A DNA stretch of 64,000 bases, taken from the NCBI GenBank assembly GCA_035626155.1, contig DASPOF010000027.1, forward strand, positions 10,685 through 74,684. Direction: 5' to 3'. Positions 17,712-41,683 of this stretch are shown here, one piece after another. Every line of letters begins with the position of its first letter. Position 1 is the stretch's first letter. Under the pieces are notes generated by a model that searched no databases, was not told the origin of the DNA, and saw only the letters and a list, made by a program, of their open reading frames with translations. A program made the translations under genes and the position numbers. This stretch comes from Candidatus Binataceae bacterium. Lineage in GTDB: Bacteria; Desulfobacterota; Binatia; Binatales; Binataceae.

Positions 17712-18110
<399 letters not shown>

Positions 18111-18309
18111 TTACTTTTTCCCCGTATCCGGCTCCGGGCGCAAGCCCCCCAAAACGACGTCCCTGCCAGCTAGCCTGCGCTCTTTCGGAGGCCGATGTGA
18201 GAGACGCAAGCGCGGTGCCACCGCAGATCAACGGCGCGCAGCGCCTACGAAACGTGCAATGAGGACGCGAAGTGCCTGTCGGGTGGGCGAACGACCAATC
18301 GCCGGGCAA

Positions 18310-22947: not shown

Positions 22948-24342
22948 TCAGTCCGATTCTCGTACGAGGCGCGCGGAGAAGAAACCGTCCAGGGCGCCCT
23001 GGTCCGGGCGCGTGCGCATGAAGCCGTCGGCATCGATGACGCCGGCGAGTTCCGCGAAGTTGGGCGGCTGCCGGTCGATCCGAAATTGCGGATGCGCGGC
23101 GAGAAAATCGCCGATAACCATCGCGCCCTCTTCCGGCGCGAAGCTGCACACGGAGTAAACGAGCACGCCGCCCGGGCGCACGAGCGTGGCTGCATTCGCG
23201 AGCAACCGCGCCTGAAGCGCCGCCATCCGCGTGAAATCGTTAGGCCCAAGCCGCCATTTGATTTCCGGATGCTCTCTCAGCGTGCCGATTCCGGTGCAGG
23301 GCGCATCGAGCAGGACGAACTCGAAGCGGGCGGGCTTGAGCGGAGGCGCCGATGTCGCGATGTCGGCGCGGACGAAATCGATGTTTCGATGGCGCAGGCG
23401 GCGCGCGAGCGCGCGCGCGTTCTTAAGGCCGGTGAAATTGATGTCGATCGCGATCACGCGGCCGCGCTCGCCAACCAGTTCCGCAAGATGGGTCGTCTTG
23501 CCGCCGGGCGCCGCCGCGCAATCGATTACCGTCGCGCCCGGGCGCGGCGCGAGCATCCGCGCGACCATCTGCGACGCCTCGGATTGCGGATGAAACAGGC
23601 CCGCGCGATAAGACTCCGAGTCGAATCGCGGCGCACTGCTGAGAAGGATCGTTTCGGGCGCGCGGCCCTCAGAGCCGATCTCGAAGCCGTCGGCGCGGAG
23701 ACGCTCGATTAATTCGGCGCGCGAGCCGCGCCTGAGGTTCAACCGGATCGCATTGGGCGCGGCGTCGTTGTTCGCGGCCATCACGCGCTCGGCGCCATCG
23801 CGGCCGAACCATTCGACGAACCGCTCCACGAGCCATCGCGGATGCGATGCTGCGATCGCCAGCCGCTCCATCTCGTCCGCATCCGGGGCGGCAACCGGGA
23901 CCGATTCGCGCGCCGCGCGGCGCAGCACCGCGTTGATGAACCCGGCGGCATCGCGCGAGGCCGGGTTGTGCTTCGCAAGCTCAACCGATGTGTCCACGGC
24001 AGCGTGACGCGGAATCCGGTCTAGATAGCGAAGCTGAAAAAGCCCGAGCCGGAGAATCTGCAACGCGACGACCTCAATATCGGCGATCCGCCGGCGAGCA
24101 AGATGCTCGATCTCGAAGTCGAGCGGGGACCGCCACGCCAGCGTGCCGAGCACGAGCCGAGTCGCGAGCCTGCGATCCGCCGGCGCCAGCGCGGGCAGGC
24201 GCGCGCCGAGGAGCACGTCGGCAAACGCGGACCGCCGCTCCACATCGACCAGGATCCCGAGCGCGATTGCTCTGGCCGCCAGCCCGGCGCCGCGCTCGCC
24301 CCGCGCGTGCCCGCGGCCCTCGCGCGCACCCGGCCTGCGCAT
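22948..24342 (-). CDS. rsmB: 16S rRNA (cytosine967-C5)-methyltransferase RsmB/Sun
   Basis: N-terminal NusB-like domain plus a SAM methyltransferase with the catalytic pair (DAPCTGIG...; YSVCS). Conserved def-fmt-rsmB order. ATG at 24342. Confidence 0.8.
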   Translation of the reverse strand: MRRPGAREGRGHARGERGAGLAARAIALGILVDVERRSAFADVLLGARLPALAPADRRLATRLVLGTLAWRSPLDFEIEHLARRRIADIEVVALQILRLGLFQLRYLDRIPRHAAVDTSVELAKHNPASRDAAGFINAVLRRAARESVPVAAPDADEMERLAIAASHPRWLVERFVEWFGRDGAERVMAANNDAAPNAIRLNLRRGSRAELIERLRADGFEIGSEGRAPETILLSSAPRFDSESYRAGLFHPQSEASQMVARMLAPRPGATVIDCAAAPGGKTTHLAELVGERGRVIAIDINFTGLKNARALARRLRHRNIDFVRADIATSAPPLKPARFEFVLLDAPCTGIGTLREHPEIKWRLGPNDFTRMAALQARLLANAATLVRPGGVLVYSVCSFAPEEGAMVIGDFLAAHPQFRIDRQPPNFAELAGVIDADGFMRTRPDQGALDGFFSARLVRESD

Positions 24343-24350
24343 GCGCGCGC

Positions 24351-25298
24351 TCACGCGCCGAGCCGCTGGCCGGCGGCGAGCCTGCGCCCGCGCGCGAAGT
24401 CTGCGCCGCTCATCCGCTTGCGCCCGGCGGCCTGCACCTCGATGAGTTCGAGCCGTCCGCGGCCGCACTGCACGACGGGATTCGGCTTGAGCGTCACGAT
24501 CGTCCCGGGCGGCGCGGCGGCCGTCTCATCGCCGACTACCGCGGCGCGCCAGACCATCAGCGGCGTTCCATCCAAGGTCGTGCGCACGACCGGCCACGGA
24601 TCGAATGCCCGTGTCATTCGTTCGATCCGGGCGGCATCGGCGCTCCAGTCGATAATCGCGTCTTCCTTCTTTACCGGCGAAGTGTAGGTCGCGCGCGAAT
24701 CATCCTGCGGCGTCTCGACGGCTCTGCCGCTTGCGATCAGTTCGAGCGCATCGAGCAGGGCCGCGGCTCCAAGCTCGGCGAGCTTGTCCTTGAGCGTGCC
24801 CTGGGTTTCGTCCGGCGCGATCGGAATCGCGCGCTGAAGCAGTATCGCTCCCGCATCCATCCGCTCCGTCATCCGCATGATGCTGACGCCGGTCTCCGGG
24901 TCGCCCGCAAGGATCGCGCCCTCGACCGGCGCGGCTCCGCGATGGCGCGGGAGCAGCGATGCGTGGACGTTTATCGGCATGATGCGGGCAACGTCGAGGA
25001 CCGCCTTGGGCAGGAGGCGTCCGTAGGCAGCGACCACGAGCAGGTCCGGCGCGAATGATGCCAGCTCGGCCAGGAACTCGGCCGTCCGGACTTTCGCCGG
25101 CTTGAGCACGGGGAGCGAGAATCGCTCGCCGACCGCGGCAACTTCGCTTGGCTGGCGCGAGAGGCCGCGGCCGCGCGGCTCGTCGGGACGGGTTACGATC
25201 GCGACGACGCGAAACTGCGTCCCGCTCGCGGCGATAAGGCGCTCAAGGATGTGCGCCGCCATCGCCGGCGTCCCCATGAAAATGATCTTGAGGGGCAA
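24351..25298 (-). CDS. fmt: Methionyl-tRNA formyltransferase
   Basis: LKIIFMGTP...HASLLPRHRGAAP...; TTG start. Confidence 0.9.
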   Translation of the reverse strand: MPLKIIFMGTPAMAAHILERLIAASGTQFRVVAIVTRPDEPRGRGLSRQPSEVAAVGERFSLPVLKPAKVRTAEFLAELASFAPDLLVVAAYGRLLPKAVLDVARIMPINVHASLLPRHRGAAPVEGAILAGDPETGVSIMRMTERMDAGAILLQRAIPIAPDETQGTLKDKLAELGAAALLDALELIASGRAVETPQDDSRATYTSPVKKEDAIIDWSADAARIERMTRAFDPWPVVRTTLDGTPLMVWRAAVVGDETAAAPPGTIVTLKPNPVVQCGRGRLELIEVQAAGRKRMSGADFARGRRLAAGQRLGA

Positions 25299-25848: not shown

Positions 25849-26144
25849 CGAGGTGCGCGCCGATTCTGAAAATCTATCAAAGAGGCTCCAACGCCGAAAG
25901 GCGATGTTCCGCGGGCGCGGGTGATGCTCGCGCCGAACATCGCGGTGAATGGAGCAGGCCGGCGAGTTCAATCCAATTAACCGCCGGGAGCGCTGGCCGA
26001 CAGAAGGAATCCTAATAATGAAGCCTTTAGCGAATTATAAGCGCTTATGAAATGATGGACTTCAAGCCTTGGCGCCGCTAAATTGCTAAACTAATACAGG
26101 GTTGGTGGAAATTTTGCCGGCCCCCCAGGAGGCAGGTCGCAATA

Positions 26145-27755
26145 ATGGCCGGCGAGCCGAACAGCCAGGATCGGCAGGCGAGCGATGGCGCGCTTCGCGG
26201 AAATCTGGCGCGCCGGTTCATCATCGGCTCGATGGTTGCGGCGGTGCCGGGCGTGGTCGCCCTGGGCATCGTGAATTTTTACTCGATTCGTTCCTTGACG
26301 ATCGTCAATCGCCAACTCGATGAGATCACGCTCTCGCTCGATGCCACGCGCGACCTGCAAACCGCGCTTATCCGAGTCGCCAGGAGTCCGGACGAATACG
26401 TCCTGCATCATTATAAGGGAGAGGAGAAGGAGTTCGACCAGGCGCTCAAGGTGGCGCAGCGCAAGCTGGTCGCGTGCTCATCGGCCCCGTGTCACGCGGC
26501 CACAAAATCTCCGCGCGAGATGGCGAGCCTGCTCGAACCCAAGCTCGAGATTTTGCGCCGCGATGGCGGGATGGTCTTCAGGACCGCATCGAGCCAGCCG
26601 CCCGCCGGCAGCAAGGAGATCGACAAGATCGACGACCTGCTCGGCGGCATCGACACCCAGTTCGGAGAGATGTCGGACGCCTTGCTGGGCCGGGTGGAGA
26701 AACTGCGCGAGCGCGCGCAGGTCGTGGATCGCCAGGCTTTGATGCTCACCGGGTTCGCGACCGCGGCGGTGCTCGTCTTTGGAGTTGCAAGCGCGCTGGT
26801 GCTCGCCAAGCGGGTGTCGCGCCCGCTCGAGAAGTTGCTGGTTGGCACGCGGCGGGTCAGGGGCGGTGAGTGGGACTATCGCGTTCAGATCGAGGATGCC
26901 GGGGAGATTGGAGAGCTCGCAACGTCGTTCAACGTGATGCTGAATGAAATCCAGCGCCATCGCGATCAGCTAAGGGATTACGGCCGCGTCCTCGAGGAGC
27001 GCGTGCGAGAACGCACCGATGAACTCAAGCGCAGCGACAAAGCGCTGCGCGAATCGGAGAAGCTCGCATCGGTCGGGTTGCTTGCCGCCGGTGTCGCCCA
27101 CGAGCTGAACAACCCGCTGACCAGCATCCTGATGAACGCAAACCTGATCATGGAGGACGTCGGAAAGGATTCGCCGCTTCTAGGCGATCTTAGGAAAATC
27201 GACACCGACGCCACTCGATGCAAGCGCATCATCGACGACCTGCGCACCTTCTCCCGCCCGCGCGACCTCAGGCTCGCTCCGTGCCGCGTCGAGACGCTGG
27301 TCGATCAGGCACTCGAGCTGTCCGACCATGAGCTGTCCGCGCGGGGAATCAAAGTGGAGACGCAGATCGCTCCGAACCTTCCCCAGCCGCTGTGGGACGG
27401 CGAGCGGATTACGCAGGTTCTCACGAACCTTTTTGTCAATGCAGCCCAGGCGATGAAAAACGGAGGAACTCTCACGGTCAGCGCGCAGCAGAGCGGGCAG
27501 TCGATCGCTCTGCAGGTACGCGACACCGGCGAAGGCATCCCGCAGCAATACCGCTCGCGCATCCTGGAGCCGTTCTTTACCACCAAGCCCACCGGCACCG
27601 GATTGGGCTTGTCCATCAGCTACGGCATCGTCCAGGAGCACGGCGGTTCGATCGAGATGGAAAGCATCACTCGGGAGGAGGCTGACCCGACGGGCAGGAC
27701 GGGCACCACAGTGAACATCCTGATCCCGCTTTCGGCGCCACAGGAGCAGGCATGA
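26145..27755 (+). CDS. Sensor histidine kinase (two TM helices, periplasmic sensor, HAMP, HisKA, HATPase)
   Basis: H-box [10 protein letters not shown] and N/G boxes ([29 protein letters not shown]). The periplasmic domain contains CSSAPCH. Confidence 0.85.
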
Positions 27756-29137
27756 GCGCGGCACCTACGGCACGCGTGTTGGTCGTCGACGACGAACCCA
27801 ACATCGGCGATTCGATCAAAAGAGCGCTTGAGCGCGTGGGTTACGCAGTCGAAGTGGTGCTCAGCGCCGAGGCCGCGCTGGCGCGGCTCGAACACAACCA
27901 AATCGACCTGGTGCTGTGCGACCTCAAGCTGCCCGGGATGGACGGGCTCGGGCTGCTCAAAACGATCGTCGAGTCGCGTCATCCCGCGGTGGTCGTGATG
28001 ATCACCGGTTACGCCTCGATCGAATCGGCGGTGGAATCGATCAAGCTCGGCGCCGCCGATTACGTCAGCAAGCCCTTCAATCCCGAGCAGATTCGGCACG
28101 TCGTCGCCAAGGCGCTCGCGCAGAAGCAGTTGATGGACGAAAACGCCTACCTCAAGGGCGAACTCAGGCAGTTGTTCGGCGAGCGGGTGGTGGTCGGCCA
28201 GAGCGTCGCGATGCAGGCGCTGTTCTCGACCGCGCAGAATGTCGCGGTGACCGACTCGAGCGTGCTCATCATCGGGGAGAGCGGGACCGGCAAGGAGGTG
28301 CTCGCGCGCTTCATCCATGCGCAAAGTCCGCGCAAGGATCGGCCGTTCGTGACGGTAAACTGCGCCGCGATTCCGGCCAATCTGCTGGAATCGGAGCTTT
28401 TCGGCCATCGCAAGGGCGCTTTCACGGGCGCAATCTACAGCCGGCGCGGCAGCTTCGAGCTGGCCGACGGCGGCACCTTGTTCCTCGATGAGATCGGAGA
28501 GATGCCGCTTGATATGCAGGCCAAAATCCTGCGCGCGCTCGAGGAGCGCCAGATTCAGCGCGTCGGCTCCGAGGAGCCCACCAACGTCGATGTGCGGATT
28601 ATCGTCGCGACGAACAAAAACCTCGAGCAGGAGGTCAAGGCCGGCCGGTTCCGCGACGACCTTTACTGGCGGCTCAACGTCGTCCAGTTGAAGATACCGC
28701 CGCTGCGTGAACGTCCCGAGGACATAATCCCGCTCGCCCGCCATTTCCTGGCGATGTACGCGCAGGAAATGAAAAAGGCGGTGACCGATTACTCCCCCGA
28801 GGTATTGCGGATATTCAATCGGCACGACTGGCCGGGCAACGTCCGCGAGTTGCGCAACACGGTTGAGCGCGCCGTTATCTTCGCGCACCCCGGCACGCCG
28901 ATCCGCCTGGCTGATTTGCCGCCCAGCCTGCGCGATGCACCCGCGCAGCCGGGCGCCACGGCCCCTGCCCCCTCCGGCCCTCTGCCTACGCTGCGCGAGG
29001 TCGAACTCGAGCACATCCGCCATGTCGTCGATGCGTGCGGCGGTAATCGAAGCCGCGCAGCGGAGATTCTCGGGATATCGGTGGTCACGCTATGGCGAAA
29101 GCTTGGCAAAGAGGGGATGGGAAACGAGCCAGATTGA
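27752..29137 (+). CDS. Sigma-54-dependent response regulator (NtrC/AtoC family: REC, AAA+ sigma-54 activation domain, Fis-type HTH)
   Basis: REC with D in [13 protein letters not shown], Walker [15 protein letters not shown] motif and C-terminal HTH ([19 protein letters not shown]). ATGA overlap with the kinase. Confidence 0.9.
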
Positions 29138-29328
29138 GGCGTCCCGCGAGCCATTACATTTTGTAATCGCTTCCCAGCCCCCATTACATCATGAAATGGG
29201 AATGGTTAATCCCTCCCGGCCCGCCTCGCTCCCGACCCGCTTGCCTTAATCCCTCTACCGCCTCCAAGTAGGCGAATTTCTTAGCTTTTTTCACCAATCA
29301 GGAACCCGGATGGGACATCCGCCTGGTA

Positions 29329-29344
29329 TGGCATCAGGCTTGCG
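29329..29344 (+). promoter_or_regulatory. Candidate sigma-54 (-24/-12) promoter TGGCAT-N5-TTGCG
   Basis: tGGcatcaggctTGCg has exactly 10 nt between the GG and GC dinucleotides. It lies about 50 nt upstream of the cupin ATG and directly downstream of the sigma-54 activator gene. Confidence 0.55.
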
Positions 29345-29392
29345 GATGTGTCTCGTGGAGTGGGCAAAGAGAGCCCGCGAGGAGAGCTTGAG

Positions 29393-29767
29393 ATGCAAAC
29401 CGCCGCCGCAGCCAGCCATCCGCTCAATCCAGGGTTGGCGTTCCGTTCCATCCGGCACCGTGGCGCTACGGTGGCGGTGTTCTGCGGGCGTGAGGGCGTC
29501 GAGGTCGCAACGGTGGAGATCGAGCCCGGCGCCACGGTCAGGGAACCGTATCTCTGGAGCGCTCGCTCCTGGCACCTGCTTCTGGAGGGCCAGGCGAGCG
29601 TTGAGCAGGGCGCCGAGCGATGCGACCTGCTGCGAGGCGAGTCGCTCTTTCTTGATGACGCACCGTACAGTCTTAGCAACCCGGCACCACAGCGGGCGAG
29701 GTTGCTGACTGTGCTTTTCCACACGGACGAGCGATCTGAACAACCTGAAGGAGGAGACAGACGATGA
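29393..29767 (+). CDS. Cupin-domain protein
   Basis: GAGGAGAG RBS and a cupin_2-like two-motif pattern (ATVREPYLWSARSWHLLLEGQASVE...GESLFL). Confidence 0.6.
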   Translation: MQTAAAASHPLNPGLAFRSIRHRGATVAVFCGREGVEVATVEIEPGATVREPYLWSARSWHLLLEGQASVEQGAERCDLLRGESLFLDDAPYSLSNPAPQRARLLTVLFHTDERSEQPEGGDRR

Positions 29768-30012
29768 TCGCGAGACAGAAATTCGTGATGTTTGGCATTG
29801 GGATTTTCATTTGGGTGAACGTGCTCACGATCGCGTTGAGCACCTGGCGCTTCGGTTACGTCGATGTGCGCACCGTCGCCCAGATGGGATTGATCGCGCT
29901 TCCGCCGCTCATCGTCGGAGCCTTCCTGCTCGCGCGCCCGGGCGCTGGTTCTCGGTTAACCAACCCTGAGCTCCCTGGCAGGGCAACCGTGGCCGTTAGG
30001 CATGCGAGGTAA
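29764..30012 (+). CDS. Small membrane protein (2 TM), hypothetical
   Basis: ATGA-coupled to the cupin; hydrophobic helices FVMFGIGIFIWVNVLTIAL and LIALPPLIVGAFLLA. Confidence 0.4.
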   Translation: MIARQKFVMFGIGIFIWVNVLTIALSTWRFGYVDVRTVAQMGLIALPPLIVGAFLLARPGAGSRLTNPELPGRATVAVRHAR

Positions 30013-30017
30013 GACCA

Positions 30018-30224
30018 ATGAACGCTGCAGCTATAAGAGAAACCCAAGGACGCCTGTATTTCCGTGGCGATAACGCAGCCGAGGCCAAGCCGATGAACGC
30101 GGCAGCCGCACCGGAACGCGAAGGCCGCCTGTTCTTCGTCGTGATCGACAGCCTGATCGCGCTCTCGCTCGTGGCCACCGCGGTATCGATCGCCGTGCTG
30201 TGCATCGCGGCAGCCTCGCTCTGA
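30018..30224 (+). CDS. Small membrane protein with duplicated N-terminal motif (MNAAA...GRLYF / MNAAA...GRLFF)
   Basis: GAGGT RBS 7 nt before the ATG and a C-terminal TM helix (VVIDSLIALSLVATAVSIAVLCIAAASL). Confidence 0.4.
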   Translation: MNAAAIRETQGRLYFRGDNAAEAKPMNAAAAPEREGRLFFVVIDSLIALSLVATAVSIAVLCIAAASL

Positions 30225-30336
30225 GCCTCGGCCGCGCCGATACGAGGCGCGGCAGCGGCGATATGAGCCAGGGATCGGGATTTGTGACGGTTAGTTGGTA
30301 CGGGCAATGAGGAGCGCTTGAGGAGAAGGAACTCAG

Positions 30337-31629
30337 ATGGACGCCAAGGCAAGTTACGAACTTGAGACCCCCCGCACGGTCGATCAACTTTGGGGCGCGG
30401 TCGTGGTGCTGGCCGGAATTTTCGGCTTCGCCATTTATATGTATCACTTCCAGTTCAGCGAGGGGCTCGGCGTGACCGGGCTCAACAAGCCCGTGTTCTG
30501 GGGCGTGTACATCGCCAACTTCATCTTCTGGGTTGGACTGAGCGCCGGCGGGATCGCGGTCTCTGCATTGGTCCATCTGATGGACAAGAAGGAGATGAAG
30601 CCGGTTGCGATCATGGCCGAGATCATGGCGGGAGGTTTTCTGATGGTCGCCGCCATGTTCATCATCATGGACCTCGGCCGCCCGACCAACATGTACCAGT
30701 TGTTCCTGCATCCGAATTTCACTTCACCGCTGCTGTGGGACGTGACGGTGGTGAACTGCTACCTGCTGCTGTGCCTGGCGCTGCTGTATTTCAGCGCGCG
30801 CGAGCACATCGTGCGCCGCCTCGGTCATAAGGCAGCGTGGAAGCCGATCGTTTTCCTGGTGTCGCTCGGGCGCACCAGCCTCTCTCCCGCCTCGGTGGAG
30901 CGCGACCATCGATGCCTGTGGGTGCTCGCCGTGATTTCGATTCCGGCGGCCGTTGCGCTTCACTCCGTGACCGCGTGGATCCTGGGGCTGGTTAAGGGAC
31001 AGCCGGGATGGAACACGCCGATACTCGCGCCGCTGTTCATCGCATCGGCGCTGGTGTCCGGGTTCGCCGCGGTGACGCTTGCGGTAATCGTTGCGCGCCG
31101 GCTGTTCGCCTTCCAGGTATCCGAGGAAGTCATACAGACCTTCGGCCGATATCTGGTCGTCGCGATTCTCATCCTGATGTACCTGTTTTTCAGCGAATTC
31201 CTTACGGTTGGTTATTCCGGGAGCCTGAGCCATATCGAGGTGTTCGATGAGATTCTGTTCGGCAGGTTCTCCGGGATTTTCTGGTTTGACGCGATAATTG
31301 GAATTCTCATCCCGCTCCTGTTACTGACCCTTCCATGGAACAAGTCGATGTTCACGGTGGGAGTAGCTTCGGCGCTGGTGGTGATTGGGGTGTTCGCCGA
31401 ACGGACCTATCTGCTGCTCCCATCGCTGATGAGGCCCAACAGCCTCACGGGCTCGGCTTCGTCCTACACGCCGACGGTGCTCGAATGGTCGCTGATGGCC
31501 GGCGCGTATGCCTTCGGTTGCCTGCTGTTCCTGGGCGGGATGGGCCTGATATTTGGCCGTCCGCCCCGCGCTGCACGCGAAGTGACCGAGGCAATTCCTG
31601 CGACCATGGTCACGGCGCCTCAGAACTGA
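30337..31629 (+). CDS. NrfD/PsrC-family polytopic membrane quinone-interacting subunit
   Basis: GAGGAGAAGGA RBS; about 10 TM helices with the NrfD pattern (GLNKPVFWGVYIANFIFWVGLSAGG..., PLLWDV). Confidence 0.8.
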   Translation: MDAKASYELETPRTVDQLWGAVVVLAGIFGFAIYMYHFQFSEGLGVTGLNKPVFWGVYIANFIFWVGLSAGGIAVSALVHLMDKKEMKPVAIMAEIMAGGFLMVAAMFIIMDLGRPTNMYQLFLHPNFTSPLLWDVTVVNCYLLLCLALLYFSAREHIVRRLGHKAAWKPIVFLVSLGRTSLSPASVERDHRCLWVLAVISIPAAVALHSVTAWILGLVKGQPGWNTPILAPLFIASALVSGFAAVTLAVIVARRLFAFQVSEEVIQTFGRYLVVAILILMYLFFSEFLTVGYSGSLSHIEVFDEILFGRFSGIFWFDAIIGILIPLLLLTLPWNKSMFTVGVASALVVIGVFAERTYLLLPSLMRPNSLTGSASSYTPTVLEWSLMAGAYAFGCLLFLGGMGLIFGRPPRAAREVTEAIPATMVTAPQN

Positions 31630-31821
31630 CGGCGCAGAGATGAGGCGGCCTTCCCCGCCGGCCGCGATTTGAGGTATCGATAACCTCGTCAGTACGCGGG
31701 GGAAGATTCCGGCCTGCCGCTCTCCAGAGAGCAGGCAGGCCGGAAGTTCAAAGAGAGAACCGAATCCGTACCGCCCCTCGTGTTTGGAGCATCGCCCAAG
31801 GTGTAAGGAGCATCGCCCAAG

Positions 31822-33360
31822 ATGGAACCGGAATCGAGCAACGGCGAGCCTGAAGAGGCTCGAGCCTCGAAGGAGGAACCAAAGGAAGCGGAATCAATTC
31901 GTCGGCCGCCTCTGAGCCTGCTGCGCAACTGGATAAGCCTCACCGGTGTGATTATCGGCGGCTTCACGCTGGCGAACATGCTGGCGCTCCTGCTCGCAGC
32001 GACCATCCTGGGGATGCGGCCGAGTCCTTACTTCGGCATCGTCGTTTACCTCTTGTTCCCCGCGATCGCGCTGGTCGGCCTGCTGCTGATCGTCGTGGGG
32101 ATGCTGTTCCAGCGCCGCCGGCTGCGCCGGCTCGCTTCGGCCGCGGCGGAGGCCCAGCAGGCGGCGTACTTGTTTCGCCACGGCGTTATGGCTCTGGGGG
32201 CCTTCTCGCTGATCTTCGCGATGGGGACAGCGCTGGCGAGCTATCACGGCTACCAGTTCACCGATTCGGCGACGTTCTGCGGTCAGACGTGCCACACCCC
32301 GATGAGGCCGGAATTCACCGCCTACCAGGACTCCCCGCACGCGCGGGTCGCCTGCGTGGGCTGCCACGTCGGACCCGGCGCCACCTGGTTCGTGCGCTCC
32401 AAGCTCTCGGGCCTCTACCAGGTCTATGCGGTCACGTTCGACAAGTACCCAAAACCGATCACGACCCCGATCAAGGAATTGCGCCCGGTTCGGTCTGCGT
32501 GCGAGCAATGTCACTGGCCGCAAAAGTTCTACGGCGCGCAGCTCAAGGCCTTCGCCCATTACGCATACGACGAGAAGAACACGCCCACCCGGATCGAGCT
32601 GTTAATCAAGACCGGAGGAGGAAGCGCCGAGTTCGGCCGCGCCACCGGAATCCACTGGCACATGAACATCGCCAACGAAGTCTGGTACGTGGCGTCAGAC
32701 AAGCAGGCCCAGGTGATTCCCTGGGTGAAAGTAAAGACCCCTGACGGAAGGACCACGGAGTATGTCGCCAAGGGCAGTACGCTCACCCCGAAGCAGATCG
32801 AGGCGATGCCGACCGAGGTGATGGACTGCGTAACCTGCCACACCCGCCCGTCCCATAAGTTCCGTTCGCCCGATCAGGCGGTGGATGAGGCGTTCGAGGC
32901 GGGCCAGATCGATCCTTCGCTTCCTTATTTGAAGAGGGAGGCGGTAAAGGCCCTGATTACCAAGTACGGCACGGTGGAAGAGGCGACCGAAAAAATCGCA
33001 ACCGCTCTCGACAGCTTCTACCACAACCAATATCCGCAGGTTTATGCGACCAAGTTTCCGCAGATAGAGTCCGCGGTCAGCACCATACAGCAGATCTACC
33101 AGAACAATATTTTCCCTGACATGCGCGTAGATTGGACGACGCATCAGGATAACATCGGCCACATGTATTACCCCGGATGTTTCCGCTGTCACGACGGGCA
33201 GCACGCCAGCGCCGACGGCCGGGTGATACCTGATGAATGCGAATCGTGTCACACGGTCCTTGCGACTCCCACCAGCGTCGCCGAGTTCAAGCATCCGATC
33301 GACCTCAAGAAGCTCGGCAGTTTGACTTGCAGCGCCTGCCACACCGGGCGCGTGCTGTAG
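31822..33360 (+). CDS. Membrane-anchored heptahaem c-type cytochrome (ImcH/NapC-NirT-like quinol dehydrogenase candidate)
   Basis: Three N-terminal TM helices then 7 CXXCH motifs (CGQTCH, CVGCH, CEQCH, CVTCH, CFRCH, CESCH, CSACH). AAGGAG RBS. Confidence 0.8.
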   Translation: MEPESSNGEPEEARASKEEPKEAESIRRPPLSLLRNWISLTGVIIGGFTLANMLALLLAATILGMRPSPYFGIVVYLLFPAIALVGLLLIVVGMLFQRRRLRRLASAAAEAQQAAYLFRHGVMALGAFSLIFAMGTALASYHGYQFTDSATFCGQTCHTPMRPEFTAYQDSPHARVACVGCHVGPGATWFVRSKLSGLYQVYAVTFDKYPKPITTPIKELRPVRSACEQCHWPQKFYGAQLKAFAHYAYDEKNTPTRIELLIKTGGGSAEFGRATGIHWHMNIANEVWYVASDKQAQVIPWVKVKTPDGRTTEYVAKGSTLTPKQIEAMPTEVMDCVTCHTRPSHKFRSPDQAVDEAFEAGQIDPSLPYLKREAVKALITKYGTVEEATEKIATALDSFYHNQYPQVYATKFPQIESAVSTIQQIYQNNIFPDMRVDWTTHQDNIGHMYYPGCFRCHDGQHASADGRVIPDECESCHTVLATPTSVAEFKHPIDLKKLGSLTCSACHTGRVL

Positions 33361-33373
33361 AGATCCGGCAGCT

Positions 33374-34120
33374 ATGAAAAGCTCGCTACCAAAGTTCCCC
33401 GAACAAATCGGAAGGCTGGCAATCGTAGCCGTTCTGCTGTTTGCAGCACTCTCGTGGATCTGGCTGGTGCTGCCGCCCTCTTTAAAGGAAAGAAGCTTGC
33501 AGCGCGAGGCGGCGACCGAGCGGGAGCAGGCCAAGGACCTCAAGTACGCAGGGGCGACGATCTGCGGCGCCTGCCACGTGCCGGAGTACAACACCAAGAA
33601 GACCGGCTACCATCGAAGCCTGTCCTGCGAGACTTGTCACGGACCGGCCAGGGCGCATACGCACAATCCGGCCAAGGTGAAGCCGGAGATACCTCAGAGC
33701 CGGAACTTTTGCCCGCTCTGCCACGCTTACGATCCGTCTCGCCCGCTGGGCTTCCCGCAAATCAATCCGGTGGCCCACAACCCGATGAAGCCGTGCGTGA
33801 CCTGCCACAACCCGCACGATCCGAAGCCGCCGCAGACGCCTCAGAGCTGCGCGGCCTGCCATCAGAGCATCATGCGCGCCAAGGCGGTGTCTCCTCACGC
33901 GCTTCTCGAGTGCACTACCTGCCACGTGGCTCCCGAGGAGCACCGGGTCGATCCCCTGAGCACGCAGGTCAGCAAGCCGAGCAGCCGCGAATTCTGCGGC
34001 CAGTGTCATAGCAAGGACTCGAAGATTCCCGGACCGCCGAAGATCGATCTCGCGAGTCACCACGAAAAGTATCTCTGCTGGCAATGCCATTATCCGCATA
34101 TGCCGACGGTTTACCGATGA
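33374..34120 (+). CDS. Membrane-anchored octahaem c-type cytochrome
   Basis: One N-terminal TM helix and 8 CXXCH motifs in 248 aa. Confidence 0.8.
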   Translation: MKSSLPKFPEQIGRLAIVAVLLFAALSWIWLVLPPSLKERSLQREAATEREQAKDLKYAGATICGACHVPEYNTKKTGYHRSLSCETCHGPARAHTHNPAKVKPEIPQSRNFCPLCHAYDPSRPLGFPQINPVAHNPMKPCVTCHNPHDPKPPQTPQSCAACHQSIMRAKAVSPHALLECTTCHVAPEEHRVDPLSTQVSKPSSREFCGQCHSKDSKIPGPPKIDLASHHEKYLCWQCHYPHMPTVYR

Positions 34121-34129
34121 GGCTGGCTT

Positions 34130-34879
34130 ATGAATAGAAGAGCCTTCCTGAGAACGCTGGGCGCCACCATCGTGCGGGCCGGGGTATTCCTCGGACTCTC
34201 GCGCGCCGGCGCGGTAGGAGCCGCCATCGAGGGCGCGGCGCCGGAAGAGAAGCCGCGCTACGGCATGGCGATCGATATCGACCGGTGCATCGGGTGCGCC
34301 CGCTGCATGGAAGCGTGCAAGACCGAAAATAACGTCCCGCAGGAACCGTTCTACTTTCGCACCTGGGTGGAGCGCTACGTCATCAAGACCGACGAAAGCC
34401 TGACCGTCCAGAACGTCGGGATGGAGAAGTACCAGATCGCGGAACCGATCAACGAGTGGGATATCCTGCGCAGCTTCTTCGTTCCCAAGCTGTGCAACCA
34501 GTGCGACCATCCGCCCTGCACGCAGGTGTGCCCGGTAGGCGCGACGTTCTCCACCGAGGAGGGCGTGATCCTCATCGACTCGACCCGCTGTATCGGTTGC
34601 GGCTACTGCATCCAGGCCTGTCCCTACGGCGCCCGCTATCTCCGACCGGATACCAAGACCGCGGACAAATGCACCTTCTGCTACCATCGAATCACCAAAG
34701 GACTGCTGCCAGCCTGCGTGGAAGTGTGCCCGACGCAAGCGAGGGTGTTCGGCGAGCTGAACACCAGCGCGAGCCCTCTCACCCGCTTCAAGCGCATGGA
34801 GATGATCCATGTGCTTAAGCCCCATCTGAATACGGAGCCCAAAGTTTTCTACGCGAATCTGGACGGGTTAGTCAGATGA
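34130..34879 (+). CDS. Tat-exported 4x[4Fe-4S] ferredoxin-type subunit (PsrB/NrfC/HybA-like)
   Basis: Twin-arginine signal (NRRAFLRTLGA) and four Cys clusters (CIGCARCMEAC, CNQCDHPPCTQVCP, CIGCGYCIQACP, CTFC...CVEVCP). Confidence 0.85.
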   Translation: MNRRAFLRTLGATIVRAGVFLGLSRAGAVGAAIEGAAPEEKPRYGMAIDIDRCIGCARCMEACKTENNVPQEPFYFRTWVERYVIKTDESLTVQNVGMEKYQIAEPINEWDILRSFFVPKLCNQCDHPPCTQVCPVGATFSTEEGVILIDSTRCIGCGYCIQACPYGARYLRPDTKTADKCTFCYHRITKGLLPACVEVCPTQARVFGELNTSASPLTRFKRMEMIHVLKPHLNTEPKVFYANLDGLVR

Positions 34880-36072
34880 CCCACAACGAAATGTTCGAGC
34901 TGCTCAAGCAGGTCACCGGCCACATCTATCCCAACGAGATCGAGATGCGGTGGTCGATTCTGATCGTCCTGTACCCCTATCTCACGGGATTGGTGGCGGG
35001 AGCTTTCATCCTGGCCTCGCTCGTCGAGGTGTTCAACGTAAAGGAAGTGCAGCCGACTTACCGGCTGGCGCTGCTGACGGCGTTGTCTTTTCTGCTCGTC
35101 GCGCCGCTGCCCCTGCTGTGCCATCTCGGGCGGCCGGAGCGGGCCTACGAGGTGTTGCTGACGCCGAACCTGACCTCGGCGATGGCGATGTTCGGCTTCG
35201 TATATGCCTGGTACCTGATGGTGGTCCTGCTGCTGGAGATATGGTTTGGCTACCGCAAGGATCTGATCGTGTGGGCTAAGCAGGAAAAATTCCCGATGAA
35301 GTGGATTCATCGGGTGATTAGCCTGTTCTCGACGGATATCAGCGAGGAAGCGGTCCGATTCGATCACAAGGCGGTAAAGTTCATCACCGCGATCGGTATC
35401 CCGTCCGCTTTTCTGCTCCACGGCTATGTCGGATTCATCTTCGGATCGGTCAAGGCGAATCCGTGGTGGAGTAGCGTCTTGATGCCGATCGTGTTCCTGT
35501 TCTCCGCCATCGTGTCGGGAATCGCGATGGTGCTGCTGCTGTACATGGTCATTATTCCGATGCGGAAGGAACATATCGACATGAACTGCGTCGATCGGAT
35601 CGCGTCGTTTTTGTTTTACGCGGTAATCGTCGACTTCTCTCTCGAGCTGCTCGATTTCATCCACCGTCTCTATGAGAGCGAGGAATCGATCAAGATCCTG
35701 TCCGCGCTGATCATCAACAAGCTCTTCATCAGCCTGGTGGTGATCCAGGTCCTGCTCGGGATGCTGGTGCCGCTCGCGGTCCTGGTGGTGATACAGCTTT
35801 TCAGCGTCGAGGAGGAACTGAGACGGCTTCTGTACTTCGTCACGGCGATCCTGATTCAAGTGGGGATCTTCAGCGTCCGATGGAACGTCGTCATCGGGGG
35901 CCAGATGTTTTCCAAGAGCTTCCTTGGCTTGACGACCTATAAGATGGAGCTGCTCGGAGTCGAGGGTCTCGCGACAGCGCTCGGGCTGTTGATCCTGCCG
36001 TTCATCATCCTGGCGGTTCTGATGAAGATCTTTCCGCCGTGGGGCGCGCCAGGACAGGTCCAGGAAGCGTAG
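34876..36072 (+). CDS. NrfD-family membrane subunit (second copy)
   Basis: ATGA-coupled to the FeS gene; polytopic. Confidence 0.75.
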   Translation: MTHNEMFELLKQVTGHIYPNEIEMRWSILIVLYPYLTGLVAGAFILASLVEVFNVKEVQPTYRLALLTALSFLLVAPLPLLCHLGRPERAYEVLLTPNLTSAMAMFGFVYAWYLMVVLLLEIWFGYRKDLIVWAKQEKFPMKWIHRVISLFSTDISEEAVRFDHKAVKFITAIGIPSAFLLHGYVGFIFGSVKANPWWSSVLMPIVFLFSAIVSGIAMVLLLYMVIIPMRKEHIDMNCVDRIASFLFYAVIVDFSLELLDFIHRLYESEESIKILSALIINKLFISLVVIQVLLGMLVPLAVLVVIQLFSVEEELRRLLYFVTAILIQVGIFSVRWNVVIGGQMFSKSFLGLTTYKMELLGVEGLATALGLLILPFIILAVLMKIFPPWGAPGQVQEA

Positions 36073-36326
36073 CGCCCTTTCGATTGGGGCGCACATCCCC
36101 GTAGCGCATCGGCGTTCGTACTTCAGAACAGCAAGTCCGCACCACGTCGAGCTTGAATGCCGGCACCTCGGGAATCGAACGAGATGACTTAGGCCGCGAG
36201 TGCCGGTGCGATAAAGCGATGTTGCGGCGGGGCGGGAAAATCAGGCTTGCCCTGATGGAGCCAATCGACGCGGCCGGTCGCGCGCGGTGAGAACGGGACG
36301 GCGCGAGCGGGAGGCCGGAGCGAACA

Positions 36327-37568
36327 ATGGTGGATGCATCAGGGCGGGCGCTGAGCGGCCTTGCGCACATCGCGCGGGCTATTGCGGCAATCTTGCTATT
36401 CGGCGTCGCGGCTGCGCAGGCCGGTCCCGCACAGGCGCCGGTCGATTGTCTATCCTGCCATAATGCGCAGCCCCCCGCCGCGGAGGCGGCCGGCGCGGTC
36501 AGCTTTTACGTGAACAAGGAGCTGTTCCACTCCTCGGTTCATTCGGCCTTCGGTTGCACCGCTTGCCATTCCGACATTCATGGCTTTCCCCATCCCAAGC
36601 CGGTGCGGCAGGTCTCATGCTCCGGGTGCCACCCGCAACAAACTTCGGCGTTCGCCGGCAGCATTCACGCGGCCGCCGCGGCCGAAAAGAAGCGCTCCTT
36701 TCCGGCTTGCCTGGATTGTCACGGGAACCCTCATGGCGTGCGCGCGATGACCGACCCGAAGTCGCGAGTTTACCCTCTCAACCTCCCGCGCACCTGCGGC
36801 TCGTGTCACGGAAGCCCCGAGCTTGCCAGGAAATACGGCTTTCCAAACGTGTACCCGCTTTACATGGACTCGATTCACGGCTTGGCACTGACCAGCGATG
36901 GCCTGCTGGTGGCCGCCACGTGCGCGAGTTGCCACGGCGCGCACGACATCGCCGACAAGAACGATCCCAGGAGCCGGACCTTCCGCACCAATGTTCCTGC
37001 GACTTGCGGCAAGTGCCATGCAGGCATCCAGGCCGATTACCGCGCCGGTGTTCATGGAGCGAAGATGGCCGCCGGGGACGCGAATGCTCCGGTGTGCACG
37101 GATTGCCATACCGCGCATCAGATCGCGCACGTGGACATCACGAACTGGCAAGTCAAAACCGTCGCCACTTGCGGCAACTGCCACAAGGAAAAACTGCAAA
37201 GCTACCGCGATACCTTCCATGGCCAGGTGACCGAACTCGGCTTCGTCGCCACCGCGCGATGCTGGAGTTGCCATGGCCCGCACAAAATTCTTCCCGCCTC
37301 GAATCCGCAATCCACAGTCGCAGCGCCAAATCTCTCCGCCACCTGCAGCAAGTGTCACCGCGGCGTAACCGCAAGCTTTGTCACTTACGAGCCCCATCCC
37401 GATGCGCGCGATCGGCAGCGCAATCCGGGCCTGTATTATTCCGCCAACTTCATGAACCTGCTGCTGTTGGGGGTCTTCGTTTTCTTCGGGGTGCACACGC
37501 AGCTTTGGCTTACGCGGTCGTTGATCAGGGGACGAAAACAGGATCCGCGGCAACCGCCACGTTTCTGA
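36327..37568 (+). CDS. 11-haem c-type cytochrome with signal peptide and C-terminal TM anchor (CbcL/CbcA-like haem domain)
   Basis: 11 CXXCH motifs and a C-terminal hydrophobic helix (NLLLLGVFVFFGV). GGGAGG RBS. Confidence 0.8.
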   Translation: MVDASGRALSGLAHIARAIAAILLFGVAAAQAGPAQAPVDCLSCHNAQPPAAEAAGAVSFYVNKELFHSSVHSAFGCTACHSDIHGFPHPKPVRQVSCSGCHPQQTSAFAGSIHAAAAAEKKRSFPACLDCHGNPHGVRAMTDPKSRVYPLNLPRTCGSCHGSPELARKYGFPNVYPLYMDSIHGLALTSDGLLVAATCASCHGAHDIADKNDPRSRTFRTNVPATCGKCHAGIQADYRAGVHGAKMAAGDANAPVCTDCHTAHQIAHVDITNWQVKTVATCGNCHKEKLQSYRDTFHGQVTELGFVATARCWSCHGPHKILPASNPQSTVAAPNLSATCSKCHRGVTASFVTYEPHPDARDRQRNPGLYYSANFMNLLLLGVFVFFGVHTQLWLTRSLIRGRKQDPRQPPRF

Positions 37569-38417
37569 ATGACAATGGAGCAAGTGGTGGAGAATAACGA
37601 TTCAGAGCGCTACTATTTCCGATTTACACTCGGTCAGCGCTACCTGCACGGCTTGTTGATCACGACGTTCCTGGCTCTTGCATGCACCGGGATGACGCTG
37701 CGGTTCAGCGAAACGCTCTGGGCTAAGCGGTTCGCGGAAGCGGCGGGCGGATTCACTGCGATTCTCTCGATACACAAGCTCTGCGCGGTGATCATCACGG
37801 CGGGCTTCATCTATCATGTCGCTGAAATCGTCGTCAGGGTGATGATGAAGGGAGAGCGAGGACTCCTGTGGGGGCCGAACTCGATGCTTCCGCAGCCGAA
37901 GGACGCGCTGGATCTTCTTCAGCACCTGCGCTGGTTTCTCTGGATGGGTCCGCCGCCCGAATTCGATCGTTTTACCTATTGGGAGAAGTTTGACTATTGG
38001 GCGGTGTTCTGGGGAATGGCGGTTATCGGAATCACTGGATACATGATGTGGTTCGGGCCGTTCTTCGCCCGCTTCGTCCCGGGTTACGTCCTGAATATCG
38101 CGCTCCTGATCCACGGCGAGGAAGCCTTGCTCGCGGTTTGGTTCATCTTCATGGTGCATTTCTTCAATTCCCATCTGCGCCCCGGGAAATTCGCGTTCGA
38201 CTCGGTGATGTTTACCGGGCGGCTGACCGCCGAGCGCTACGAGCACGAACATCTGCTGGATTATTCGCGCTTGGGCGAGTCGGGCGCGCTCGAAAGCCTG
38301 CGCACCGACGCGCCTCCGCTTTGGCTGAAAAATTTCTCCCGCGTGATCGCAATTGTCGCGGTCAGCATCGGCTTTTCTTTGCTGGTGCTGACGCTGATCG
38401 CATTCTGGAGCCGATAG
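37569..38417 (+). CDS. Dihaem b-type cytochrome (FdnI/HyaC-like membrane subunit)
   Basis: Immediately adjacent to the 11-haem gene, 4-5 TM helices with conserved His (RYLHGLL, HKLCAVI, HGEEALL, HFFNSH). Paralog of 45858-46559. Confidence 0.75.
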   Translation: MTMEQVVENNDSERYYFRFTLGQRYLHGLLITTFLALACTGMTLRFSETLWAKRFAEAAGGFTAILSIHKLCAVIITAGFIYHVAEIVVRVMMKGERGLLWGPNSMLPQPKDALDLLQHLRWFLWMGPPPEFDRFTYWEKFDYWAVFWGMAVIGITGYMMWFGPFFARFVPGYVLNIALLIHGEEALLAVWFIFMVHFFNSHLRPGKFAFDSVMFTGRLTAERYEHEHLLDYSRLGESGALESLRTDAPPLWLKNFSRVIAIVAVSIGFSLLVLTLIAFWSR

Positions 38418-38517
38418 GCGCCCGCGCTGACAACGCCGGCTTGACTCTGACCCCGCCTCAGGCGGAGATAGCCGAAGTAAAGCTGACCCACTTTCGCCAG
38501 GCGACGGGGTGGAGTGC

Positions 38518-38537
38518 GAGGAGGGCTGCCCCTCCTC
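38518..38537. terminator. Perfect 8-bp GC hairpin (gaggagggctgcccctcctc) between convergent genes
   Basis: Sits between the cytochrome b gene (+) and the sulfatase gene (-). No strong U-tract. Confidence 0.35.
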
Positions 38538-38588
38538 GCCAGTCCGTCAGAGAGCCTCGCCGATCGATGGCTCTTCTCGAGCGCCTCA

Positions 38589-41105: not shown

Positions 41106-41683
41106 TATTGCCTCCCCACAGATTGCGGTCTGTTGTCGTCGCAACTCAGCCGTTAAGCGATCCACCTCGGCGCGGATCCTTGATCGTCTCCCACCGAGGG
41201 ACCACGGAGCCGACGGGCCCGAGCGACTATCTCGGGCGCCGCACGGTCAACTGTGTGCCTGGCGCCATAAATGGAACGACAAAGGATTGAAAATAATCGC
41301 ATGCTGCGTCAAGAGGACTCCGAATCGGTTGCAGCCGCTCACGATCCAGCTCGACGTAAGTCGCCCGCCTTCATCCCAGCGTCGCGACGAACACCGCCAA
41401 TCAGTTTTCAATCGGCAACCGGGATCAGTTTTGCACCGGCGGCAACAACGCAACGCTCGCCGTTTTTTTTCGGTCCGCGCCGAGTTCGTTTTCCGCCTGG
41501 GAACTCAGGCGGTTGGCGGCCCCGTCTAGGGTGAAATTCCCGCCGGCCTCGGACGTTTTTCCCGCCTGCGCTCAAAACCTTTTCCGGGCTCCCTCCGGCG
41601 CCTGCCCAATTAACTAAATCGTTCGAAGCGCCTATGTTGAGAGTCAGAACAAGACAGGAAATGAGTTCAGGAGGTGGACAGAA

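Follow-up and report, generated by a model that had tools for sequence, protein, structure and literature searches.

In the 64,000-nucleotide stretch of Candidatus Binataceae DNA analysed here (contig DASPOF010000027.1, positions 10,685 to 74,684; hereafter the window), the genes of a sensor histidine kinase and of an NtrC-type response regulator stand directly before a cupin-led cluster of multihaem cytochrome genes, and the region between the regulator and the cupin gene carries a putative sigma-54 promoter preceded by two palindromes. We read this arrangement as a two-component switch by which sigma-54 controls a respiratory cytochrome operon, with a probability of about 0.75. Phylogenetic footprinting over 10 independent loci supports sigma-54 control of the cupin gene and possibly of the cytochrome cluster, as the initial annotation of this DNA had suggested, and all the sequence features which that annotation listed are found where it placed them. 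Taken alone, the regulatory chain is a well-supported annotation that follows textbook logic. The interesting part is the kinase sensor, which belongs to a rare, uncharacterised family, together with the conserved link to multihaem operons of variable content in uncultured phyla.

The loci compared came from searches for homologues of the kinase sensor region and of the cupin, which gave 10 independent regions upstream of a cupin orthologue: the window itself, L081, L002 (with L084-86), L087, L088 (with L089), L092 (with L093-95), L090 (with L091), L096 (with L097), L099 (with L100), and L101. The P0005 contig was compared by gene order, in which it agrees with the window, and stands outside the 10-locus DNA comparison. 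The kinase of the window is 100% identical to an annotated protein of a Candidatus Binataceae metagenome-assembled genome, and its sensor region is 85% identical to that of L081. A search of genome contigs with the regulator returned mostly paralogues at 40-47% identity, the only orthologous loci being L001 and L002 (67%), and a search of metagenome contigs with the cupin alignment returned only near-identical copies of L002 (L084-L086).

The sigma-54 promoter

The candidate promoter, TGGCATcaggcTTGCG, occupies 29329-29344 of the + strand and starts 192 nt past the regulator stop codon. It reads TGGCAT-N5-TTGCG, with GG at 29330-31 and GC at 29342-43 in the exact GG-N10-GC spacing, in agreement with the initial annotation, which had placed such an element about 190 bp downstream of the regulator gene. 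Transcription is predicted to start near 29355. Exact matches to TGGCAY-N5-TTGC occur twice in the window, against 0.16 expected. The second, TGGCACcgcgcTTGCG at 18205-18220 (-), precedes a P-II (GlnB/GlnK) gene (17712-18110, -) by ~96-156 nt. P-II genes are classic sigma-54 targets. This match is probably a second real sigma-54 promoter and serves as an internal control; its position upstream of a P-II gene suggests that canonical sigma-54 promoters are used by the organism.

A scan with a sigma-54 position-weight matrix had been proposed as a check of the site. When run with an ad hoc, home-made matrix it did not discriminate: the site came second in the window and was not separated from mononucleotide shuffles, which scored higher. 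Because the matrix failed against the shuffles, single-sequence statistics are weak here, and the case rests on position and conservation. Between the window and L081, TGGCAT and CTTGCG are invariant while four of the five spacer bases differ; the first bases past the -12 element, the ribosome-binding site and the start codon are also conserved. GG.A.-N5-TTGC is invariant in the cupin upstream regions of all 10 loci, the strict form being GG(C/T)A(C/T)-N5-TTGC(C/G). In 1.8 Mb of unrelated loci this strict form occurs at a background rate of 0.004 per 250-nt oriented region. No sigma-70-like site was found in 29138-29392.

Matches of the same kind are seen upstream of some kinase genes. A canonical TGGCAY-N5-TTGCT precedes the kinase start codon by 15-25 nt in L087 (1811-1826), L088 (1835-1850) and L092 (181-196), and in Rokubacteria-type loci another palindrome, similar to TGTGGCGCAATCGCCCCACA, is found ~80 nt upstream of the promoter preceding the kinase. 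These sites suggest that the Rokubacteria-type kinase-regulator operon may itself be sigma-54-dependent, through another activator. The window (26103-26118) and L081 (738-753) have only a degenerate TGGTGGaaattTTGCC, from which the predicted start would land within the ribosome-binding site.

Candidate activator sites and the intervening DNA

Two palindromes had been described upstream of the promoter, and both are present: TTACAtttTGTAA at 29154-29166 and CCCATT-N9-AATGGG at 29180-29200, with CCATTACAT occurring at 29151 and 29181. They are more aptly taken as two imperfect palindromes of 19 bp each, designated here as candidate upstream activator sites (UAS). UAS-A, CCATTACAT-T-TTGTAATCG, spans 29151-29169 (centre 29160, ~-195 from the predicted start) and UAS-B, CCATTACAT-C-ATGAAATGG, spans 29181-29199 (centre 29190, ~-165). 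The centres are exactly 30 bp apart, and both sites are kept in L081. The core, TTWCA-N3-TGWAA, has two matches in 64 kb, both of them here, against 0.04 expected. In the loci long enough to cover the region, a TT(A/T/G)CA-N3-TG(A/T)AA palindrome is found at -189 to -210 and a second site at -113 to -165; in Rokubacteria-type loci the second site lies at -113 to -133 and has the right arm TG(A/T)AATGG. In 8 of the 10 loci the sites start within ~20 nt of the stop codon of the orthologous regulator. The initial annotation had seen in the palindromes the geometry expected of enhancer-binding-protein sites, and the position of the candidate sites, the uniqueness of their core in the window and its recurrence in orthologous loci uphold this suggestion.

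Between the activator sites and the promoter lies an element, CAAGTAGGCGAAT (29265-29277, centre ~-84), that resembles a binding site for integration host factor (IHF), with 6 of 9 positions matching YAANNNNTTGATW. The equivalent WATCAANNNNTTR site, likewise between the UAS and the promoter, matches at 7/9 in L081 and at 8/9 in L002, L087 and L096, and the match is 9/9 at the same position in L088, L090 and L099. Across the loci long enough to show it, the YAANNNNTTGATW element falls at -68 to -84. The block 29263-29277 is conserved in the alignment of the window with L081, and the IHF-like element is conserved again in a 7-locus alignment. A weak hairpin at 29259-29274 was considered as a rho-independent terminator and rejected. 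Its loop sequence is conserved in L081 but its stem is not, and the segment therefore reads better as the IHF-like element. An RNA element in the intergenic region or leader was likewise rejected (no Rfam match, folding z = -1.2). An exact direct repeat of 10 nt, TTAATCCCTC, at 29206-29215 and 29246-29255 (spacing 40 bp), falls in the stretch from the activator sites to the IHF-like element and is only partly conserved in L081.

The predicted layout is that of the standard sigma-54 architecture of enhancer, bend and closed complex, ordinary in kind and well supported. Comparison with the other genomes shows that the putative UAS sites and promoter are functional elements, as judged by their conservation, and not chance matches.

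The two-component pair

The kinase (536 aa; 26145-27755, +) has the Pfam domains HAMP, HisKA and HATPase_c, transmembrane helices (TM) at residues 25-43 (TM1) and 203-221 (TM2), and the H-box HELNNPL at residue 319. The regulator, a bacterial enhancer-binding protein (461 aa; 27752-29137, +), matches Response_reg, Sigma54_activat (E 4e-74), AAA_lid_14 and HTH_8. Its layout is complete: a receiver with the phospho-acceptor region DLKLPGMDG at residue 57, an AAA+ domain with Walker A GESGTGK (residue 175), ESELFGH (213), GAFTGA (222) and Walker B (243), and a C-terminal Fis-type helix-turn-helix (HTH). The stop codon of the kinase and the start codon of the regulator overlap as ATGA, and 4-nt overlaps of this type occur in the orthologous loci also. 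The earlier description of a histidine kinase translationally coupled to an NtrC-family activator is thus correct as to both the domains and the overlap.

In the NCBIfam collection the top matches of the regulator are AtoC (447 bits against an equivalog cutoff of 714), NtrC (422 against 559) and ZraR (402 against 760). The kinase core comes nearest to AtoS (221 against 646) and ZraS, so that all of these matches are well below the equivalog cutoffs.

An orthologous kinase-regulator pair lies directly upstream of the cupin gene in 8 of the 10 loci, counting L099/L100, where the contig is cut and the gene upstream, presumed to be that of the regulator, is represented by its 3' end. The gap before the cupin gene in these eight is ~220-255 bp. 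L101 is too short to show whether the pair adjoins. L090 and L091 (1-5000) keep the palindrome, the IHF-like site (9/9), the sigma-54 promoter and a cupin-NHL-multihaem operon; just upstream, in place of the two-component system, is an MtrB/PioB-type porin gene with genes for multihaem cytochromes on both sides.

L001 and L082 were considered as further instances of the regulatory layout and rejected, since neither the palindrome nor the promoter is found downstream of their orthologous regulators. In L082, in the P0005 contig and in L001 (7395-8454) the kinase-regulator pair adjoins a molybdopterin oxidoreductase/iron-sulphur (FeS)/NrfD cluster of Psr/Ttr-like type, with EB_dh and monohaem cytochrome c genes. 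No cupin gene, palindrome or -24/-12 element follows the regulators of L082 and L001, and downstream of the L001 regulator there are a TTGAA-N9-TTCAA repeat and a multihaem gene.

The periplasmic sensor

The sensor comprises residues 44-202 of the kinase. AlphaFold2 models it (pLDDT 89) as an up-down four-helix bundle between TM1 and TM2, with sensor-model helices at 2-69, 74-94, 104-129 and 136-205. The best Foldseek matches are four-helix-bundle sensors, namely, Adeh_2942 (4k0d listed), Tar, Tsr, NarQ and PcaY. At the level of sequence, the region has no match to a Pfam sensor domain at E up to 0.01, CHASE3 (PF05227) included, and no relative among PDB entries. PF05227 is matched only in two distant homologues, P0006 and P0007 (25-26% identity). 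An exhaustive search of 1.84 billion proteins gave 37 representatives of the sensor family, and all the named members are from uncultured Binatia, Rokubacteria, Nitrospinae, Acidobacteriota and Planctomycetota.

The initial annotation had pointed to a C-SSAP-CH (CX4CH) sequence in the periplasmic domain as a possible atypical haem-c site. The motif, C111-SSAP-C116-H117, is present (residues 111-117; codons 26475-26495, +), and it is periplasmic, because it lies between TM1 and TM2. The family alignment strengthens the observation: in 32 sequences, with identity down to ~16-20%, C111, C116 and H117 are the sole invariant columns of the sensor, and M126 and M176 are conserved in at least 90%. 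All 10 orthologues have C-x4-C-H, which the distant CHASE3-type homologues, P0006 and P0007, lack. In the model, the motif takes up the end of helix 2 and the start of the loop between helices 2 and 3, M126 in the first turn of helix 3 and M176 in helix 4. By helical register, the motif and the two methionines may be level with each other in the bundle.

The hallmark of haem-c attachment is a His that comes straight after the second Cys, and tetrahaem cytochrome c3 has genuine haem-c motifs of the form C-x4-C-H, with small residues between the Cys. In Geobacter, CX2-4CH is a signature for haem-containing signal transducers, including the two-component protein GSU0599 (PMC8396549). Going by its locus number, GSU0599 would be a neighbour of bccR, a regulator gene discussed below. 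For these reasons, covalent haem with His/Met ligation appears to be the most likely reading of the motif, to which we would give an even chance. A broader proposal, which we make tentatively and with somewhat less than even odds, is that the kinase represents an undescribed class of periplasmic haem-c sensors, family-wide in uncultured phyla. Members would have a four-helix bundle like that of Tar or NarX, with haem on C-x4-C-H and a conserved Met as distal ligand, and would pass redox information through a dedicated sigma-54 activator to multihaem operons of quinol-oxidising or extracellular-electron-transfer-like type.

A proposed mechanism for the switch

The following sequence of events would account for the arrangement. 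The membrane kinase would respond to some signal in the periplasm, for which redox state or a haem ligand is the most plausible choice, through the four-helix-bundle sensor, where C-x4-C-H and the two conserved methionines would most likely form a covalent haem-c site. A change in the bundle would pass via TM2 and HAMP to the kinase activity, and the kinase would phosphorylate the regulator with which it is translationally coupled. We infer that the phosphorylated regulator is the protein that oligomerises on the two 19-bp palindromes, ~195 and ~165 nt upstream of the start. A bend at the IHF-like site (~-84) would bring it to the sigma-54 holoenzyme, which would be held as a closed complex at TGGCAT-N5-TTGCG, and ATP hydrolysis by the regulator, acting through the GAFTGA loop, would open the promoter. 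Transcription would then enter the cupin gene, two genes for small membrane proteins and an NrfD gene, and would probably go on through the multihaem, FeS, NrfD and cytochrome bc-like genes to 38417.

Alternative explanations

Several observations weigh against the proposed switch or parts of it. The distance between the two palindromes varies by clade, from 30 bp in the window and L081 to ~76 bp elsewhere, and the IHF-like element is poor in the window (6/9). No rpoN, ihf or cytochrome c maturation genes were seen in the window, and a search of the window for an RpoN box was empty. L090 and L091 keep the sites and the promoter without an adjoining two-component system, while L001 and L082 hold orthologous kinase-regulator pairs without a downstream cupin gene, sites or promoter. 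Finally, internal gaps of 112, 193 and 255 bp in the cluster could hold internal promoters. These points can be set against the specific alternatives. That the -24/-12 match and the palindromes arose by chance, and that the intergenic region is transcribed from an ordinary sigma-70 promoter, is very improbable: the failure of the home-made matrix against shuffles is in its favor, but GG.A.-N5-TTGC recurs in 10/10 loci (background 0.004 per region), the spacer has diverged between hexamers that stay the same, the intergenic region has no sigma-70-like site, and the palindrome core is unique in 64 kb. Less remote, but still unlikely, is that the palindromes and the promoter are real and are bound by another activator or a repressor, the adjacent two-component system acting elsewhere. 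The loci that have the sites without the pair, and those that have the pair without the sites, both speak for such a separation. However, the sites lie within ~20 nt of the orthologous regulator stop codon in 8/10 loci (with L101 too short to count), a sigma-54 promoter cannot work without an enhancer-binding protein, which the gene directly upstream supplies, and tandem 19-bp palindromes suit Fis-type HTH dimers, as is established for NtrC. A larger share of doubt, about one chance in three, attaches to the length of the transcript. The sigma-54 promoter might drive only the genes for the cupin, an 82-aa protein, a 43-aa peptide and the first NrfD, with the genes from 31822 under promoters of their own. 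The gaps of 193 bp (31629-31822) and 255 bp (36072-36327) favor the shorter unit, as does the P0005 contig, where the genes past NrfD differ from those of the window. Yet all the genes in 29393-38417 are on one strand, no convincing + strand terminator was found in this interval, nor a convincing sigma-70-like + strand promoter in the cluster before 37412, and in Rokubacteria-type loci multihaem genes come directly after the cupin and NHL genes. With its internal gaps, the longer unit is put forward as the probable one.

The nature of the sensor site can be weighed in the same way. C-x4-C-H is not the canonical CXXCH, and together with the methionines it could instead be a metal site (e.g., Cu(I) or Zn, with Cys2-His-Met ligation) or a periplasmic dithiol/disulfide redox switch. 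We regard this as a credible alternative, if not the expected one. Cys, His and Met are typical soft-metal ligands, none of the four-helix-bundle sensors of solved structure among the structural matches is described as haem-binding, and the sensor has no sequence relative in the PDB. On the other hand, the His immediately after the second Cys and the precedent of cytochrome c3 are as expected of haem c, and the CX2-4CH signature covers haem-containing signal transducers of Geobacter (PMC8396549). In addition, the genes under regulation are those of cytochromes, which a haem redox sensor would fit. Covalent haem is thus retained as the working assignment, at the even chance given above.

Relation to known systems

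The switch resembles NtrB/NtrC-glnAp2, AtoS/AtoC and ZraS/ZraR in having a regulator with a receiver, an AAA+ domain with GAFTGA and a Fis-type HTH. It also shares with the group of NtrBC-glnAp2 the tandem palindromes more than 100 nt upstream and the -24/-12 promoter with GG-N10-GC, and has in the IHF-like element a candidate for the bend site. It differs from NtrBC, AtoSC and ZraSR in its unrelated sensor, in the site TTWCA-N3-TGWAA and in its target, which is a cupin-led cytochrome operon.

A parallel in terms of target is found in Geobacter sulfurreducens, where BccR (GSU0598), an activator with receiver, sigma-54 and HTH domains, is needed to induce the sigma-54 promoter of cbcBA; that promoter stands before small hypothetical genes, after which come the genes of a c-type multihaem cytochrome that has a C-terminal TM and of a b-type cytochrome of the membrane (10.1101/2021.04.15.440034). 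The cluster in the window likewise ends in a c-type and b-type pair similar to CbcA/CbcB, judged by the published description. Unlike bccR, which is divergent, the kinase and regulator genes are co-directional with the operon, adjacent to it and upstream. The cargo also differs from that of cbcBA by the addition of two NrfD proteins, one NrfC-type protein and two further multihaem proteins, and the c-type cytochrome has 11 haems here versus 7 in cbcBA. The initial annotation had described the arrangement as a mirror of BccR control of cbcBA. The parallel lies in the activator, the sigma-54 promoter, the small genes and the c + b pair, but the regulator is not divergent and the gene order is different. 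The comparison holds as an analogy, and does not make the system a demonstrated member of the BccR or the NtrBC group.

In its sensor, the kinase can be compared with the haem-c sensors of Geobacter (GSU0582 and GSU0935, of the sCache_haem type) and with GSU0599, which are also transducers with a periplasmic sensor and a strictly conserved motif of haem-c type (PMC8396549, PMC12889525). The organisms concerned are in both cases rich in multihaem cytochromes. However, the characterised haem-c sensors are PAS-like or Cache domains with CXXCH (PMC12889525), whereas for the kinase a four-helix bundle bearing C-x4-C-H is predicted. With Tar, Tsr, NarX/NarQ, PcaY and Adeh_2942 it shares the up-down four-helix bundle between two TMs followed by HAMP, but there is no detectable sequence similarity to these proteins and the invariant C-x4-C-H is specific to the family of the kinase sensor. 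For Adeh_2942, Tar and Tsr, PMC3831638 mentions no cofactor.

These comparisons bear on what the system may mean. In Binatia and Rokubacteria, GG(C/T)A(C/T)-N5-TTGC(C/G) preceded by TTWCA-N3-TGWAA is a mark of cupin-led operons for multihaem cytochromes, and the signature of promoter and sites could define a regulon in these uncultured soil and subsurface lineages. The presence of the MtrB/PioB porin module beside such an operon in L090/L091 suggests that regulated electron transfer, be it extracellular or periplasmic, reaches beyond the characterised lineages. If haem is bound, covalent-haem sensors would extend from PAS/Cache folds to a four-helix-bundle fold. Such a sensor would be a simple and testable candidate for how cytochrome inventory is matched to redox conditions, a question that is also open for BccR of Geobacter.

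The cupin-led gene cluster and its surroundings

The genes from 26145 to 38417 form an uninterrupted run on the + strand. The first gene past the promoter, here and in every locus, encodes a small cytoplasmic cupin (124 aa; 29393-29767, +). In the window the ATG of the gene is at 29393 and its ribosome-binding site, GAGGAG, at 29379-29384. The Pfam matches of the protein, Cupin_2 (18 against 27 bits) and AraC_binding_2, are below cutoff; the assignment comes from the fold, modelled by AlphaFold2 at pLDDT 83 and matched by Foldseek to TM1459-type cupins (E 9e-8). The canonical metal-binding His cluster, or triad, is not conserved.

Two small genes follow. One, overlapping the cupin stop codon, encodes an 82-aa membrane protein (29764-30012, +), whose counterparts measure 87 aa in L081 and 86 aa in the P0005 contig. 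The other encodes a 43-aa peptide with a single TM (30093-30224, +), read from an internal ATG of the open reading frame (ORF) 30018-30224, and has 43-aa counterparts in the same two loci. Neither product has a family match. Next comes a quinone-interacting membrane subunit of NrfD/PsrC type (30337-31629, +; Pfam NrfD 2e-51). In the P0005 contig an NrfD gene likewise comes after the small genes, and in L081 the position is taken by a 353-aa gene, cut by the contig end and without a Pfam record.

The genes beyond the first NrfD were assigned from Pfam matches, together with counts of haem motifs for the first three cytochromes. Four of them, whose NCBIfam matches are below the cutoffs, encode a membrane-anchored 7-haem NapC/NirT-like cytochrome (512 aa; 31822-33360, +), an 8-haem cytochrome (33374-34120, +), a Tat-type NrfC-like 4Fe-4S protein (34130-34879, +) and a second NrfD (34876-36072, +). 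The NapC/NirT-like cytochrome has six CXXCH motifs, one CX3CH (CGQTCH, residue 153) and three N-terminal hydrophobic segments. The last two genes encode an 11-haem c-type cytochrome that has both a signal peptide and a C-terminal TM helix (36327-37568, +) and, with no gap after it, a cytochrome b561-like (Ni_hydr_CYTB) membrane protein (37569-38417, +), the end of the cluster; their TM segments were taken into account in the assignment. A second sigma-54 promoter before this cytochrome bc-like pair (36072-36327) was considered and rejected, as the GG-N10-GC spacing fails.

In Rokubacteria-type loci the cupin gene is followed by genes for an NHL beta-propeller, several multihaem cytochromes and a lactonase-like propeller, and in every locus the cargo after the cupin gene consists of membrane/periplasmic or multihaem electron-transfer genes. 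Since the cargo differs between the window-type and the Rokubacteria-type loci, the regulatory module is conserved and the electron-transfer cargo is variable.

Upstream of the kinase gene, on the - strand, are def, fmt and a 506-aa ORF (22948-24468) read as rsmB-like from its translation. At the other end, past the cluster, is a convergent sulfatase gene (38589-41165, -). Between it and the cytochrome b gene, at ~38515-38540, there is a GC-rich hairpin, CGAGGAGGGCTGCCCCTCCTCG, which is likely to be a bidirectional terminator at the end of the cluster.

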